A stretch of 64,000 nucleotides of DNA from a virus, in IMG/VR virus record IMGVR_UViG_3300050821_006746, positions 45,142-109,141 of that record; one strand, given 5' to 3'. The position numbers and the translations under genes are program-made. The notes beneath the pieces were generated by a model, which saw only the letters and a program-made list of their open reading frames with translations, was not told where the DNA came from and ran no database searches. Position 1 is the first letter of the stretch. Every line of letters begins with the position of its first letter. Shown one piece after another: positions 26,863 to 33,512 of this stretch.

Positions 26863-27798
26863 TTAATACATGTTATCCGTTTTACCGGCTTCCAGTTCAT
26901 CTAGTACATAATGGTCTACGGTTGTTTGTATTCTTTTGTGCCTTAAAGCTTTTTGGGCGAGTCTGATATCTTCTTTGGCTAAGATCGTGCCTACGAAGCG
27001 CCGAAAGTCATGCGGCTTAATATGCTCCAATTCACAACGACTGGCGTACTTTTGCACTGCATTCCAGATTGCTTGAGGTGTGATTGGTTTAAGGAGTATT
27101 TTTTCTCCTCTGCCCGTGAATGACGTAAAGATGTATTCGCATTCTATTGGACGTGCTATAAGCCATGCTGTTATGGATGTGTGCGCCTCTTTGCTCAGGA
27201 AGGCGCTTACTGGCTTGATCTCGTTCTTGCCGCGTACTTTCAGCACATAGCCACCTTCTTGCTCCTCTATCTGGCTTTGTTTGAGTGTTGCCAGTTCGCT
27301 AGCTCGTATGCCAGAACTGGCAAGGGTATGGAGTAGAGCGCGGTCACGCAATCCTACCAGTGTAGCCGTGTTTGGCATCTCGCAGAGACGGCGCATATCC
27401 TCTGGTTTGATGCGAGTTCTAGCGTGTGGTTTGAGTTTGTCAGGATCGATCTTGACGCCTTCAATGTCTCTGAACTCTTCATAGATGGACCTGTCAATGA
27501 GTTTTCGTTTTTGAGCCTCTTTTATTATGCGTTTGATTGCTGACATCATACGATTGATCGTGTTGCTACTTTTGAAGGTTCCATCCTCTTGAGGCGTTAG
27601 AAGCATCCAATCGCGCCACTCTCGCATGGTTTGCGCGTCCATAATGTCTAGCTCTTTCTCTGATGCGAAATGCTGATAACTAGAAATGGAGTACTTGTAC
27701 ATTTTAATAGAAGAGTCAGCCAGATCATAGGTGAGCCAGTTTTGTAAATTCTGGCTCACTGTATGGAGTGCGCTGTGTGGTACAAGTTGCCGATCCAT
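26863..27798 (-). CDS. Tyrosine recombinase/integrase
   Basis: RDRALL...SGIRASEL, HDFRR, LRH, TTVDHY catalytic R-H-R-H-Y; RBS GGAGG before ATG 27798. Confidence 0.92.
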   Translation of the reverse strand: MDRQLVPHSALHTVSQNLQNWLTYDLADSSIKMYKYSISSYQHFASEKELDIMDAQTMREWRDWMLLTPQEDGTFKSSNTINRMMSAIKRIIKEAQKRKLIDRSIYEEFRDIEGVKIDPDKLKPHARTRIKPEDMRRLCEMPNTATLVGLRDRALLHTLASSGIRASELATLKQSQIEEQEGGYVLKVRGKNEIKPVSAFLSKEAHTSITAWLIARPIECEYIFTSFTGRGEKILLKPITPQAIWNAVQKYASRCELEHIKPHDFRRFVGTILAKEDIRLAQKALRHKRIQTTVDHYVLDELEAGKTDNMY

Positions 27799-28277
27799 TA
27801 AACTTCCTCCTGTACGTAGCTCTCGATATACTGCAAAAGTGATTTTACTCTTTCCGGTTTTTCTTCCAGCAAACCAAGAGCCTGATTGCATGCACTACAT
27901 AGCAAGCCTCTGACTCTTCCTGTGGTATGGCAGTGATCGACATGGAGCATAGGAATACGGTTTATTGTGCGCTTGCTTCTACCCGCATTATTGGTTTCTG
28001 GTTTTCCACAACAAGCGCATACACCGCTCTGCCCTTCTAGCATCCTCTCGTAGTCCTCTAGGTTAATGCCATATGCAACTCGAAGTTGTGCATCCTTCAT
28101 TTTTCGGTAGTCGTATGATGCGTGTTTATGTGATGCAACGCAGACCTTACACCACGACTCTACCCCAAATGCTTTCTTGGGAGCAGGTGAATACTCAGAT
28201 AGATTTTTGTGTTCTTTGCATCTCGAACATAGTTTTCTTCCCAGAGCATCTAATTCAACGCGCTGACCTCTTGCCAT
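27798..28277 (-). CDS. Endonuclease VII-family (His-Me) homing endonuclease
   Basis: YGINLEDYERML..Q..VCACC; LHVDHCHTTGRVRGLLCSACNQALG. Confidence 0.92.
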   Translation of the reverse strand: MARGQRVELDALGRKLCSRCKEHKNLSEYSPAPKKAFGVESWCKVCVASHKHASYDYRKMKDAQLRVAYGINLEDYERMLEGQSGVCACCGKPETNNAGRSKRTINRIPMLHVDHCHTTGRVRGLLCSACNQALGLLEEKPERVKSLLQYIESYVQEEV

Positions 28278-28492
28278 GAAAATCTTCCTTTCAAAACCAT
28301 CACGGGCTAAATAGGCATTTAATCAACCTATCTTCTCCTTGATTATAGCAGATCATACCCCACTTGTCCACACTTTATCGATGCATATCAAATCGTCCTA
28401 TGCTACTCGACGTGTTCCAGGTTGGCACGTATTGCGAGTTTGCGATGCCTGGCAGAAAAGAGTATGATAGGCGAAATAGCAGAGGAGTAAAT

Positions 28493-28771
28493 ATGCAAGA
28501 ATATTCAGACTTTATCGAGCAAATAGTAGCGGCAATGAAACCGCTCATTGGTAGCATCGAAACAAGCGAGGTCAGGAAGTACGGATTGGAAGCGGCTTCT
28601 GTTGTATATGATAGGCTGATCCCTCATTGGAATACTGGCGGCGGTTCTGGTATGCCTAACCCACAGGTAACGCCAAAGGAGGTGGCTGTAGCAGAGACGT
28701 TCACTAAGGCTTGCCACAAATTGCAACTTACCGTGGAGCATGAGGTGAACATGATGCACAAGGCTGGCTAA
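28493..28771 (+). CDS. Hypothetical protein
   Basis: RBS GAGGAG, upstream TATGAT box, downstream terminator. Confidence 0.6.
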   Translation: MQEYSDFIEQIVAAMKPLIGSIETSEVRKYGLEAASVVYDRLIPHWNTGGGSGMPNPQVTPKEVAVAETFTKACHKLQLTVEHEVNMMHKAG

Positions 28772-28792
28772 GGATTAACCTCTAGACAATAC

Positions 28793-28827
28793 GAGAGCGC
28801 TGAGCAGGTAGCCAGCGCTCTTTGTTT
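28793..28827 (+). terminator. Terminator hairpin
   Basis: GAGAGCGCTG...CAGCGCTCTTTGTTT. Confidence 0.65.
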
Positions 28828-28849
28828 GCTCGTTATGCTATAATCGTCA

Positions 28850-29340
28850 CGTGGTCCCCAATCCACGAAGCTAACAGTGAGGGATGTTGACGATAGATGC
28901 TCGTCCTGCAAGTTGAACATCAATCAGTCAACATCCTCGTCGGAATGGTTCACCATCGGCGTAAGAGGTACGGTATAGCCGCTAAGTATCTGGTACTCAC
29001 TCCAGTAAACCTCGCAAAAAGAGCACGACCTATGCATCCTTCGGGATAGCGGGTAACGCGCTCTTTTTGTTTGATTGACAGTCGTGATAGCATATATTTG
29101 GTTCACCTGTATGCAAATGGTAAGCATAGGGTCGCGCCCAAGATTGCAGGTTTCGATCCCTGGCAGGTGCATTGCTCACCTGCCATGTGCAGGAAGAGCA
29201 ACGGTGTCGCTACTAAGGGACAAGCGAAGTGTACATGCGCCCCAACCAACGACGCTAGCAAACGACCTCTTGTAGAGGGAAGTGCTCTCAGCAGAGTGAG
29301 AGGATAGCACCGGAGAATTAACTAGCTCCGGTGCTATTTT
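28850..29340 (+). ncRNA. Putative structured non-coding RNA(s)
   Basis: Extended -10 TGCTATAAT at 28836; series of hairpins incl. C(UUCG)G tetraloop; strong terminator at end; no convincing ORF. Confidence 0.6.
29103..29171 (+). ncRNA. tRNA-like element with truncated anticodon arm
   Basis: CACCTG/CAGGTG acceptor-like stem, D-like arm ATGC-AAATGGTAA-GCAT, T-like arm CAGG-TTTCGATC-CCTG; anticodon arm only GGGTCGCGCCC. Confidence 0.55.
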
Positions 29341-29349
29341 TGTTTTTTT
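29304..29349 (+). terminator. Rho-independent terminator
   Basis: ATAGCACCGGAG/CTCCGGTGCTAT 12-bp stem plus T tract. Confidence 0.8.
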
Positions 29350-29807
29350 GCGTGTTACACAAGAATATTTCTTGGCTCAATGTTGAACCCCAACCAATCT
29401 GCCAAATCCATAAACTCTTGATGCGTCATTGTAATAGCGCAAGTATCATTGATGGGATTATCTGTGATTTGCAGACCTCTTTGGCAAAATCCGGCGATAT
29501 ATGCTTCACAGAAGCATCGGCGCAACATACTTCATAAACCATGTTGGTGCTGAATATACCCGCTCAGACCCCTTCCAGGCTTATCTGACGTGTATCAAAT
29601 TGAAAGAAAGCCAAGATATTCTTGGCTTTCTCAGACAGGCGGTTCTATTGAAAAGGTTGCTCGGACTGCGGCAAGATATGCATCACAGGGCCATTCTGAT
29701 ATATCCCACACAAACCAAAATACATCCTTTACAAGTGACCATTTTGGGCCTATAATACAAAGTGTTGTGACCGAAAATGGTCACTTATCAAGAAAGGGAT
29801 ATGTGAT

Positions 29808-30305
29808 ATGACCCAAAAACAATGGCTGATGGAGCATGAGCATCTCTGGGATCTTGTGTTTGCTCTGGGAACAGAAATCGAGCGGATAAAGGCCAATGAT
29901 GGTGTTGACAGTCTGCATCTGAAAAAGCTGAAAAAACTCCGAGAGCTTTTTCAGGCCATGATCGAGAATGCCGAATGGGAGTACCACGAGGACACTGGAG
30001 AGCGTCACCGGCCCGCAGAGCGGGTGATGATCTCGCTCATCCCACATAGCGACGATTGGTGGTCCGATCCTTACGCTGTGGTCCCTGTTGCGGGCCAAAC
30101 GGCAACCATGGGCAAGCAGCGATGGGCAGTTCTCGAGAAAGGGGCAGGCCGCCCTGTGGGAGAGAAAACCTACTCTCAGAAGACCCACGCCTACCGCGCT
30201 TGTCGCAGGCTCAACGATGCGGCCCGGCAGGCATTTGAGGACAAGCGCGGATGGTTTCCGACTCCTGCCCTGGCTACTGAAGCGGAGAGCAGCCTGGCGC
30301 AGTGA
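29808..30305 (+). CDS. Hypothetical protein
   Basis: 165 aa ORF, visibly GC-richer than its flanks. Confidence 0.6.
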   Translation: MTQKQWLMEHEHLWDLVFALGTEIERIKANDGVDSLHLKKLKKLRELFQAMIENAEWEYHEDTGERHRPAERVMISLIPHSDDWWSDPYAVVPVAGQTATMGKQRWAVLEKGAGRPVGEKTYSQKTHAYRACRRLNDAARQAFEDKRGWFPTPALATEAESSLAQ

Positions 30306-31486
30306 ATTTATGTGAAGCATCTAATGGCCCGTGAAGCATATTTTGGCAGTGAACATTCGGGACAAAAGCATCAAATGCTCTGAAAAGAGAACAAAATGAC
30401 TCACTGCTTCAATATGCTTCACAAATCAGAATCGCTGCCAACATATCCTACAGAAAACCTATTAGCTCGTTAGTGTCAAGCCGCTTCTGGCGTCAAGGCA
30501 CTGCCACGATATGGGTAATAGCCGTTGTCAGAATATGCATAAAATCACATTATCAGTGTTATCGGGGCAGCAGAGAATAGAGATGAAATCGTCGTTCTCC
30601 CTAAATTGCAACTCGCTATCAATGCCGCGTATTGACCATACTCCCATTATGCCCTCTCTTTGTCGTCGCTTTTCTCAACATTTCGTATTGCCACATAGCC
30701 ATCTCGCCACCCTGCAATTTCCATCGGTTTTCCAGGGATATTCAGCGTCCACTTTGAATCGTTGTCTTCTTCTTGTGTGACCGCCTCCGTGATTTGCCGC
30801 AATCGCTCTACTCGCTGATCCTCTGGCAGTTCACGCAGCCAGAACAAGACCAGGCTTTGCATCTCATCATTGGTGAGCGGTGAGTACGAGAAGCCCCATT
30901 CGTCGCATCCTTGCCCTGTTTTTATCTCGATATCGTCGCAACAGTTTGTGATAACTGTAACCTCATCGGTGATTCTTTGCTGGCTCATTGCGGCTGCTTC
31001 CCATGCTTTTCCAGAATGCGCATCCACATGCGATCTTTCTTCTGCTCTTCCACTGAGAGATGCTAGGGCAATGGGTGATCCACAATGTGACGATAATCGC
31101 CTAGTGCTATGCGTTTGCCGCAGATGCTACAAGGCACGCCTCTAATGAGAATTGACGCTGGAATGATACAGAGTAACAAGAGCACGATCATTGCTACAAG
31201 GAAAAAGTAAATCATTTTAACCTCCTGATTCTCGCGATTATACCATAGTCGCCACAAAGCTAAAACAACCTGAAACAAGACGGACAACATGAAATGAACT
31301 GGCACGGTTGTATAGACAAGCGATATAGAGTACAATTGCTGTGGATAGTGGTTTTCGTTCTGCTTTGGAGTGGTCATTGTTGGTAGCTCTCCTTATCGCA
31401 ATTGAAACTGCCAATCCGGTGCGGTTGGCAGCGTGCTCTAGCCGATCATGTACGTGTGATTGGCGTTTTTGCATGTCTGGAGATCA

Positions 31487-31984
31487 GTGGTGAGCACCGA
31501 TGATACACCAGAGGAGAGCGCAAAGGCTTATCAGGCTTTTCTCGATTATCGTGACATGGGTGTGAATAGAAGCCTGGCGAAACTTAACGAGCGATACGGC
31601 AAAAAAGCGTCATATATACGTCAATTACAAAAGTGGTCTGCCTTGTATGATTGGCAGGCACGCATAAAGCAATTTGAGCAGGAACAAGCAGAGGAGCGAG
31701 CGGCCAAGATCCAAGCAGATCTTGATGAGATGAACGAGCGTCATGTGAAATTGGCGGTTGAGCAACAAGAGAAAGCCAGGAAGCAAATTGAGGATCTTAT
31801 CAATGCTAGGGCATTTGGGAGTCAGGCGGTTGTGCAGTTGCTCAAAATCGCAACGGACCTAGAACGGTTGGCGCGTGGTGCTCCAACTGAGCGAGAAGAA
31901 ATAACAGGTAGTATCAGCCATAAGGTTGTTTTTATGGTTCCACAGAAAGGGGAGAAGCGCAACAATGATAACGATGTCTCCTGA
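31487..31984 (+). CDS. Terminase small subunit (putative)
   Basis: ESAKAYQAFLDYRDMG..RSL...WSALYDWQAR; directly upstream of TerL; GTG start after GGAG. Confidence 0.75.
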   Translation: MVSTDDTPEESAKAYQAFLDYRDMGVNRSLAKLNERYGKKASYIRQLQKWSALYDWQARIKQFEQEQAEERAAKIQADLDEMNERHVKLAVEQQEKARKQIEDLINARAFGSQAVVQLLKIATDLERLARGAPTEREEITGSISHKVVFMVPQKGEKRNNDNDVS

Positions 31985-33512
31985 TGTGGAAATACAACCC
32001 GGTGATACTGTTATCAAGGCTCAAGAAGGACCACAAACCACATTTCTTGAGAATGATGCAGACATTTGTATTTATGGCGGGAGTGCAGGCGGCGGCAAGT
32101 CATGGGCATTGCTGCTTGACGCGCTCTACTATGCTGCACTAGATCCTGTTCCTGGCTTCGGCGCTGTTATTTTTCGTCGCACGTCTCCACAAATTACACA
32201 AGAAGGTGGTTTGTGGGATGAGGCGGCTAAATTGTATCCCCTCGCAGGTGGCATTCCTAAAACAACGCGCCTTGAGTATGTCTGGCCGCGCAATCAAACC
32301 AAAGTGCGCTTTGCCCACATGCAGTATGATAGCGACCGCTTTAACTGGCAGGGCGCACAAATTGCCTATATTGGATTTGATGAGCTTACCCATTTCACCG
32401 AAGAACAGTTCTTTTATATGCCAAGCCGCAACCGTAGCGTTTGTGGCGTTAAACCTCGCATGCGTGGGACCGTCAATCCTGATGCTGACTCATGGGTGAA
32501 ACGTTTCCTTGCTCCTTGGGTAGATGAGGAATGGCCAGTGGAGGATAGGGCGGTGTCTGGTGAGAAGCGCTGGTTTATTCGTGATGGTCGGCAAATTGTT
32601 TGGCTCAAAAAGGGCGAAATGCATCCTGATGCCAAGTCGGTTACGTTTATCAGGGCAAGTGTCTACGATAATAAGATTTTACTCCAGACCAATCCTGAGT
32701 ACCTAACTAACCTCAAGTCATTGCCGCTGATTGAGCGCGAACGTTTGCTTAACGGCAACTGGTCTATTCGTCCTGAAGGTGGTCAGTACTTCAAGAAACA
32801 TTGGTTTCCTGTCCTGAGTGTTCGTCCTGGGGATATCGAAGTAGAATGCCGTTATTGGGATAAAGCCGCTACTGAGATTGTACCGACTAGTAGTAAGAAG
32901 CAAGATCCTGACTATACCGCTTCTGTGCTCCTTGGCAGGCGCAAGGCAGGCGCTTATCCTCGCTACGTGGTGTTAGATGCCACATGGGATAGAAAGTCAC
33001 CAGGCGGCGTTGAGAAGCTTGTTAGACAAGTAGCAGAGCATGACGATGAGTGTTATGCAGACGAACAGGGCGCGTTGATTCACGGTAAATATGTTCGTGT
33101 GTGCATCGAAGAAGAAGCCGGGTCCTCTGGCAAGGATGACACCTATACCTTTGTGACAAAGGTCCTTGACGGGTTTGACGCTCACGGTATACGGGTGACA
33201 GGAAGCAAGGAAGTGCGCGCCAAGGCTCCATCAGCTCAGTCTGAGCAAGGGAACATAGCTCTACTTAAAGCATCGTGGAATGCTGCTTTTCTTGACTTCC
33301 TGGAAGCGTTTCCTAATCCGAAAGTACACGATGATCCTGTTGATGCCTTCGATGGTTCTTATGGCCAACTTAGCGTGTCACGCGTACCATTGGATGGTGA
33401 GCCTGAGATAGCAGAAGCGCAAGTAGAAGTGCCAATCCTGCAAGAAATCATCAAACAACAATCTGATCCATTTGGCTATTTTGATCGATTGCATGGGGAG
33501 GATTGGACGTGA
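31965..33512 (+). CDS. terL: Terminase large subunit
   Basis: Walker A GGSAGGGKS, Walker B IGFDE, nuclease RYWDKAA...DYTA...HDDPVDA. Confidence 0.95.
   Translation: MITMSPDVEIQPGDTVIKAQEGPQTTFLENDADICIYGGSAGGGKSWALLLDALYYAALDPVPGFGAVIFRRTSPQITQEGGLWDEAAKLYPLAGGIPKTTRLEYVWPRNQTKVRFAHMQYDSDRFNWQGAQIAYIGFDELTHFTEEQFFYMPSRNRSVCGVKPRMRGTVNPDADSWVKRFLAPWVDEEWPVEDRAVSGEKRWFIRDGRQIVWLKKGEMHPDAKSVTFIRASVYDNKILLQTNPEYLTNLKSLPLIERERLLNGNWSIRPEGGQYFKKHWFPVLSVRPGDIEVECRYWDKAATEIVPTSSKKQDPDYTASVLLGRRKAGAYPRYVVLDATWDRKSPGGVEKLVRQVAEHDDECYADEQGALIHGKYVRVCIEEEAGSSGKDDTYTFVTKVLDGFDAHGIRVTGSKEVRAKAPSAQSEQGNIALLKASWNAAFLDFLEAFPNPKVHDDPVDAFDGSYGQLSVSRVPLDGEPEIAEAQVEVPILQEIIKQQSDPFGYFDRLHGEDWT

Follow-up and report, generated by a model that had tools for sequence, protein, structure and literature searches.

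A gene-free stretch of 514 bases (28836-29349) in the genome of an uncultured phage has, to judge from its sequence, about an even chance of holding one or two moron-like, non-coding transcription units on the + strand. A moron is an insert between phage genes that consists of a cargo with its own promoter and terminator; in the units proposed here the cargo would be RNA. The stretch is best described as a plausible small-RNA locus, and not as a new class of large structured RNA. The first-pass annotation had recognised a stand-alone structured RNA locus of ~500 nt and proposed either one large RNA or several small undescribed phage RNAs. The stretch is indeed non-coding and carries promoter and terminator motifs, but a predicted internal terminator (T2) splits it. 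The second option agrees with the anatomy, which reads promoter, ~225 nt, terminator, ~240 nt, terminator, and with the lack of any Rfam match. Among the two predicted units, U1 is better supported than U2 because its promoter is credible, its terminator strong and its hairpin stable. The features of the locus are, from left to right:

28794..28832, + strand: T1, predicted terminator of the 92-135-aa gene (9-bp perfect inverted repeat, tail TTGTTTGCTCG)
28836..28844, + strand: P1, extended -10 promoter motif TGcTATAAT without a -35 box (motif enrichment in the genome)
~28851..29073, + strand: U1, predicted RNA of ~225 nt (fold z -3.6, no coding signal)
28881..28937, + strand: 57-nt bulged hairpin with 10-bp perfect arms GGATGTTGAC/GTCAACATCC (-24.6 kcal/mol, z -4.7)
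28965..29013, + strand: predicted three-way junction GAGGU/ACCUC, weak (best fold, z -1.0)
29014..29076, + strand: T2, predicted internal terminator with a long stem, UUCG loop and U-tract (-26.4 kcal/mol, z -5.5)
29071..29098, + strand: P2, weak candidate promoter TTGATT-16-TATATT (9/12 consensus matches)
29104..29169, + strand: "tRNA-like" element, marginal resemblance (z -0.2, no tRNA call)
~29105..29345, + strand: U2, predicted RNA of ~240 nt (fold z -3.0, no coding signal)
29161..29185, + strand: 9-bp perfect hairpin/palindrome TGGCAGGTG/CACCTGCCA (inverted repeat, fold)
29266..29302, + strand: two short hairpins, CCUCU/AGAGG and CUCUCA/UGAGAG, before T3 (fold of 29262-29349)
29303..29349, + strand: T3, predicted terminator with a 13-bp stem, 10-nt loop and tail U5GU7 (z -5.0)

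Genome, host and neighbourhood

The analysed window comprises bases 45142-109141 (64 kb) of a 109,141-bp IMG/VR virus record, which represents a single uncultured phage genome. The record has a 97-bp terminal overlap that probably reflects circular assembly. The phage probably infects Ktedonobacteria, which are mycelial Chloroflexota. The best genome match of the large terminase (31926-33512) is in Tengunoibacter tsumagoiensis (51%, two loci), and the DNA of the right flank (29457-29611) recurs in dispersed repeats, 70-93% identical, of eight genomes of this class.

To the left of the locus, the minus strand carries genes for a tyrosine recombinase (26863-27891, ~1 kb away) and an endonuclease VII (27798-28277), and a + strand gene of 92-135 codons (28364-28771) lies directly upstream. 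The intervening segment 28278-28363 is a divergent promoter region. A minus-strand copy of TGCTATAAT (28350-28342, with TGGACA-17 upstream, 11/12 matches) would drive endonuclease VII and the recombinase leftward, and the 92-135-aa gene starts rightward from the same gap. The next gene downstream of the locus encodes 165 aa (29808-30305, + strand) and is followed by two small minus-strand genes (30647-31027 and ~31063-31213) and, from 31460, by the packaging genes for the small terminase, large terminase and portal.

Absence of a coding signal

Nowhere in the 109-kb genome is there a non-coding interval larger than 28772-29807. The same gap contains the longest stretch of the window without an ORF of >=90 aa in any of the six frames (1,009 nt, compared with 489 nt for the next). 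Coding potential was scored with a codon-position Markov model trained on the long ORFs of the genome. ORFs inside the 514-base stretch reached -0.048 to +0.006 bits/nt, compared with 0.030-0.055 for the flanking genes, 0.048 +/- 0.028 for the training genes and a mean of -0.036 for out-of-frame shadow ORFs. A well-spaced ribosome-binding site was found for none of the ORFs in the stretch, and a Pfam search with them gave no match. The earlier statement that the stretch has no credible ORF is thus borne out. That a small ORF is a real gene, be it the one of 50 aa (28897-29049, +), 54 aa (29111-29275, +) or 82 aa (28924-29172, -), is extremely improbable. The 82-aa ORF does have AGGTGA 3-4 nt before its ATG. 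However, the three candidates score only -0.024, -0.017 and -0.013 bits/nt, respectively, they cross terminator hairpins and lack Pfam matches, and a search of 28500-30500 revealed no minus-strand promoter from which transcription could enter the stretch from the right. Decayed coding remnants or paralogues of the stretch were not detectable elsewhere in the genome, nor was there any duplication among U1, U2 and their flanks.

Predicted terminators divide the locus into two units

T1, T2 and T3 each consist of a GC-rich hairpin followed by a U-tract on the + strand, as expected of intrinsic terminators. They are spaced 245 and 273 nt apart and have matching U-rich tails. The two outer ones had been recognised before and stand as described: in T1, bases 28794-28802 pair with 28813-28821 and are followed by TTGTTTG, and T3 has 12-13 perfect pairs (29304-29315 with 29326-29337) and a U-run that extends to 29349. 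The long stem capped by UUCG had been taken for a structural helix. It is real (z -5.5) but is more than that, because UUUUUGUUUG lies directly 3' of the stem, and a UUCG stem with such a U-tract is predicted to be an internal intrinsic terminator. The locus would therefore comprise two units instead of one. The tail GCTCTTTTTGTTTG and the 3' half of T2 are similar to those of T1 and T3 (repeat families D1 and D2), and an A-tract upstream of T2 makes this terminator look bidirectional. Perfect-stem terminator-like sites are rare, with ~9 in the whole genome and 0-3 in shuffled sequences. At least two are at the locus, and the 1-kb gap contains three, besides the bulged T2. A consensus terminator scan, which accepts loops of up to 8 nt, missed those on the + strand, whose loops are longer or whose stems contain bulges. 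T3 makes sense only if transcription on the + strand arrives there.

Promoter motifs

The extended -10 motif annotated at the left edge is present as TGCTATAAT at 28836-28844. It lies 15 nt after T1 and is oriented into the stretch. Sigma-70-type polymerase reads extended -10 boxes without a -35 element. The genome contains nine copies of TGNTATAAT compared with 3.65 in shuffled sequences (2.5-fold enrichment), and at least five of the other eight copies immediately precede a ribosome-binding site and gene start. The genes behind those copies are the endonuclease VII operon, a small membrane-protein gene and three homing-endonuclease genes. This enrichment and the placement before genes indicate that P1 belongs to a promoter class that the phage really uses. 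Plain TATAAT, in contrast to TGNTATAAT, is depleted (47 copies, 64.6 expected), which suggests that the phage depends on extended -10 promoters for its small independent units. Sites like P2 are no more common than chance would have it (six found, 3.8 expected from shuffled sequence).

A strong promoter, ~225 nt of structured non-coding RNA and two strong tandem terminators could also make up a terminated leader that places an operon under antitermination control, similar to lambda pR'-tR' or HK022 put. Polymerase starting at P1 would then halt at T2 and T3 unless a phage factor, or the leader RNA on its own, altered it. The position of the small terminase gene 2.1 kb downstream would suit such a leader, as would the small gene directly upstream. 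However, a separate near-consensus promoter precedes the next + strand gene (29808-30305), two minus-strand genes separate the locus from the packaging operon, and the upstream protein matches no PHROG, Pfam, Q-type or other antiterminator family. A leader function is thus quite improbable.

Folding of U1 and U2

The ends of U1 were placed ~7 nt past the -10 box and within the U-tract of T2; we infer transcription of both units, like these ends, from the motifs. The predicted U1 contains, in this order, a small 5' hairpin, the 57-nt bulged hairpin, a short hairpin and the predicted three-way junction. U2 would consist of the "tRNA-like" stretch, the 9-bp hairpin, an unstructured segment, two short hairpins and T3. 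The whole 514 nt fold better than shuffled sequences (z -4.6). Windows of 240 nt at the locus have z values of -5.8 and -4.2, which are below, or nearly below, those of all 208 other windows of the same genome (-0.48 +/- 1.29). Both strands of the stretch fold equally well. In the first-pass annotation the stretch was read as a run of consecutive helices. This holds for two hairpins and the terminators, but about half of the claimed helices match shuffled sequences. The bulged hairpin GGATGTTGAC/GTCAACATCC is one of the two that hold, with a z value of -4.7. The GAGGT/ACCTC three-way junction does appear in the best fold, yet with a z value of only -1.0 shuffled sequences do as well, and the segment 29186-29262 is unstructured (z +1.3). 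Besides the terminators, only the bulged hairpin and the 9-bp CAGGTG hairpin count as real structure. In addition, 13 nt of U1 (28898-28910) are complementary to U2 (29188-29200).

Three CACCTG sites lie within 80 bp (29104, 29164 and 29177) and form the only such cluster in the window, where the average is one site per 1,280 bp. The CACCTG/CAGGTG cluster permits alternative RNA pairings but could equally represent DNA-binding sites, and the perfect palindromes in the stretch can equally be read as sites at which proteins bind DNA. According to this second reading the locus would be a DNA-level control region (attachment site, origin, pac site or operator), and GGATGTTGAC-N35-GTCAACATCC, TGGCAGGTG-N7-CACCTGCCA and the third CACCTG would bind a repressor, a recombinase or a replication or packaging protein. 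Besides the CACCTG density, the tyrosine recombinase gene 1 kb to the left and the equal folding of both strands are consistent with such a role. So is an 11-bp inverted repeat around the -10 box of the next promoter in the same gap: its arm at 29735-29745 is upstream of the transcript start, and therefore the repeat would act at the DNA level and operators of such a kind would exist in the gap. However, the U-tracts after the stems of T1 and T3 are on the + strand only, as for terminators. Moreover, iterons are lacking, GGATGTTGAC has no further copies elsewhere, and no attachment-core identity to 169 Ktedonobacteria genomes, which may not include the true host species, or to host tRNA genes was found. 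A control region at the DNA level is therefore improbable.

The tRNA-like element and Rfam families

The segment 29104-29169 had been annotated as a tRNA-like element, a claim that did not survive closer inspection. Its stability equals that of shuffled sequences (z -0.2). ARAGORN detected no tRNA or tmRNA gene in the window or the whole 109-kb genome, even at a relaxed threshold, and the same genome gave no hit to Rfam model RF00005 at E<=10, although this model matches in 14 of 14 control genomes. The cloverleaf is the best fold only of the excised segment 29100-29172 (-20.8 kcal/mol, z -0.2). Once the segment is extended by 18 bases, CACCUGCCA further downstream captures the CAGGUG strand, and the hairpin at 29161-29185 outcompetes the cloverleaf. 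The element has an 8-nt T-like loop and an 11-nt mini anticodon arm but no CCA end. Its alignment to 36 distinct tRNAs from two Ktedonobacteria genomes is marginal, with a best score of 13 compared with 9.0 +/- 1.9 for random segments, 12 of 300 of which reach 13. A true tRNA at this position was rejected on the grounds of the negative ARAGORN and RF00005 results, the shuffle-level stability and the stronger competing hairpin.

Across the 64-kb window, no Rfam family, GOLLD and ROOL included, reached its gathering score. At E<=10, the region 28600-29600 gave only chance matches driven by the terminators, for example to rli40 (18.6 bits, cut-off 100). The proposed likeness to GOLLD and ROOL, large RNAs encoded next to tRNAs, fails because the genome has no tRNA gene. 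It is very unlikely that an anti-defence decoy or protein sponge is encoded here, be it as a single large structured RNA (~500 nt) or as a genuine mimic of tRNA. The overall fold (z -4.6) and the 13-nt complementarity between U1 and U2 would agree with this reading, as would the cloverleaf-like fold of 29100-29172 in isolation, with its D-loop-like AAAUGGUAA and T-loop-like UUCGAU, and the start of this element at the expected transcription start of P2. These features are outweighed by the internal terminator that divides the stretch, the missing Rfam and tRNA model matches, the absence of tRNA genes nearby and genome-wide, the failure of the tRNA-like fold against the local hairpin, and the lack of homologues (see below).

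A variant of this reading combines both units in one lineage-specific structured RNA system of Ktedonobacteria phages. The 5' end of U2 would be a tRNA mimic without an anticodon, whose CAGGUG acceptor strand can switch from the tRNA-like fold to the hairpin at 29161-29185 and back. Its role would be to signal processing or to act as a decoy that distracts a host enzyme or defence aimed at tRNAs, and U1 would pair with U2 through the 13-mers at 28898-28910 and 29188-29200. Very little credence is given to this scenario.

Search for homologues

BLAST searches of the locus against phages and plasmids revealed no homologue. Scans of IMG/VR with exact and gapped patterns found none either, apart from matches that proved on inspection to be due to chance. 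Likewise, nhmmer and BLAST searches of 174 loci around related large terminases (from IMG/VR, genomes and metagenomes) recovered no homologue, and the upstream 92-135-aa protein, used as a search anchor, was a singleton without homologue. When 28780-29810 was compared by BLAST with 169 Ktedonobacteria genomes, only the neighbouring repeat matched. The part 28780-29456 had no match in this set, which possibly does not include the true host species. Single-sequence covariance models of 28851-29016 (R1) and 29100-29262 (R2) matched only themselves in a search of 151 Ktedonobacteria genomes, five related virus records and 11 relative loci.

The sequences most similar to the large terminase, 77-88% identical, occur only in assembled public sequencing runs (P0002, 81%, on a 43-kb contig; P0003, 77%; P0004 and P0005, both 88%). 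Elsewhere the closest sequences are 38-44% (IMG/VR), 60% (metagenome contigs) and 51% (genomes) identical. This confinement of close relatives to assembled public runs indicates that the lineage is poorly sampled. Relatives with large terminases of 55-60% identity have no comparable gene-free gap within 2-8 kb upstream of their terminase genes, which suggests that the locus is lineage-specific or was recently acquired.

Mobile and operator-like elements in the right flank

Among the matches of 29457-29611 in Ktedonobacteria are some at contig ends and some beside transposase genes, which include an IS6-like ORF in locus L087 and the gene of a 447-aa transposase in locus L088. Short copies of the repeat are found at 29498, 29675, 30311, 30330 and 30411, and around the 165-aa gene there is a cluster of five GATATGCTTCACA motifs. 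The segment 29457-29611 and its copies look like debris of transposon ends or of a miniature element (MITE). A further MITE-like segment of 113 bp (30311-30423) has the perfect 10-bp terminal inverted repeat TGTGAAGCAT ... ATGCTTCACA and begins 6 nt past the stop codon of the 165-aa gene. It is overlapped by a translated match to the host locus L088, and a target-site duplication is not evident.

Upstream of the 165-aa gene, the near-consensus promoter TTTACA-17-TATAAT, which would drive this gene, has its -10 box enclosed by the arms of the perfect 11-bp inverted repeat GTGACCATTTT / AAAATGGTCAC (29735-29745 and 29775-29785). The repeat is a candidate operator, and the 240-nt window around it had the most extreme fold score seen (z ~ -8). 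A terminator-like site, one of the few in the genome, lies on the minus strand at 29605-29631 and comprises the perfect 12-bp hairpin AGAAAGCCAAGA/TCTTGGCTTTCT with TTCAATTT behind it; the related AAGAATATTTCTTGGCT is at 29361-29378.

Since the debris lies immediately to the right of the locus, part of the gap may be junk. The whole stretch could be a functionless junction or insulator, a mosaic boundary in which stacked terminators have accumulated together with decayed or mobile DNA and an orphan promoter. RNAs made there would be by-products, and the sole function would be to block read-through between the neighbouring transcription units. Three tandem + strand terminators in 550 nt would suit this purpose. 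The similarity of 29457-29611, and of copies up to 30423, to dispersed Ktedonobacteria repeats next to transposases points in the same direction. Furthermore, relatives with 55-60% identical large terminases lack a comparable gap, half of the stretch has shuffle-level structure, and homologues were not found. However, a mere boundary would hardly explain a perfect extended -10 box of the class that precedes genes, placed 15 nt after T1 and pointing inward. Termination also requires neither the 57-nt bulged hairpin nor the 9-bp hairpin, coding remnants and paralogues are undetectable in the genome, and the segments show no duplication. A functionless junction is thus unlikely, though it deserves serious consideration.

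Proposed mode of action

If the locus consists of moron-like RNA units, the sigma-70-type polymerase of the host would start U1 ~7 nt past TGcTATAAT (28836-28844) and stop at T2 (29014-29076), giving an RNA of ~225 nt dominated by the 57-nt bulged hairpin. U2 (~240 nt, to T3) would arise from the weak P2 or from read-through of T2. The products may act as trans-acting regulatory small RNAs that pair with other RNAs or bind proteins through the hairpin loops and the unstructured segment 29186-29262. Regulation in trans is the most likely action by analogy with the small RNAs of prophages (PMC4104026, PMC7067206). A duplex-energy search for targets among 185 translation start regions of the phage found no pairing better than those of shuffled RNAs.

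Comparison with known systems

GOLLD and ROOL, like the locus, are phage-borne, non-coding and structured. The locus differs from them in its internal terminator, its much lower degree of structure, the absence of neighbouring tRNA genes and the lack of a covariance-model match. Domains similar to tRNA occur in tmRNA, in the bacterial Y-RNA YrlA and in the RNase P-processed immunity RNAs P4 CI and P1 c4. By eye, an acceptor stem, D arm and T arm can be drawn for 29104-29169 as well. Unlike those domains, however, this element fails in ARAGORN and RF00005, has an 8-nt T-like loop and lacks an anticodon arm and CCA end.

The lambda pR'-tR' leader is the 194-nt "6S" transcript. The locus shares with it and with HK022 put the order of a promoter, ~200 nt of structured non-coding RNA and one or more strong terminators upstream of packaging genes. 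In contrast to these leaders, no Q-like gene was recognised at the locus, the downstream gene has its own promoter, and genes on the opposite strand precede the late operon.

We know of no characterised small-RNA biology, and of no phage biology, in the Ktedonobacteria (Chloroflexota). If transcribed, U1 and U2 would represent the first small-RNA candidates in a phage of this group and, with ~225-240 nt, would be unusually long for phage small RNAs. The locus is an in-silico candidate in a singleton genome and opens no long-standing question; a small-RNA unit flanked by a promoter and terminator in a temperate phage will not surprise the specialist.

Small RNAs are documented from moron positions of prophages, as are novel ncRNAs from their transcriptomes (PMC4104026, PMC7067206, PMC3594210). 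Examples are the EHEC anti-sRNAs AsxR and AgvB, lambda OOP and the ncRNAs of BTP1 (PMC4104026, PMC7067206, PMC3594210). The locus has no sequence or structure homology to any of these moron-type sRNAs, and most of the known ones are 50-100 nt long, whereas ~225-240 nt are predicted here. Like them, however, U1 and U2 would be short non-coding units between phage genes with a host-type promoter and an intrinsic terminator. The known units are absent from related phages; here, relatives with 55-60% identical large terminases show no comparable gap. The locus matches no described family and, if expressed, would belong to a known kind, the small-RNA units of phages.
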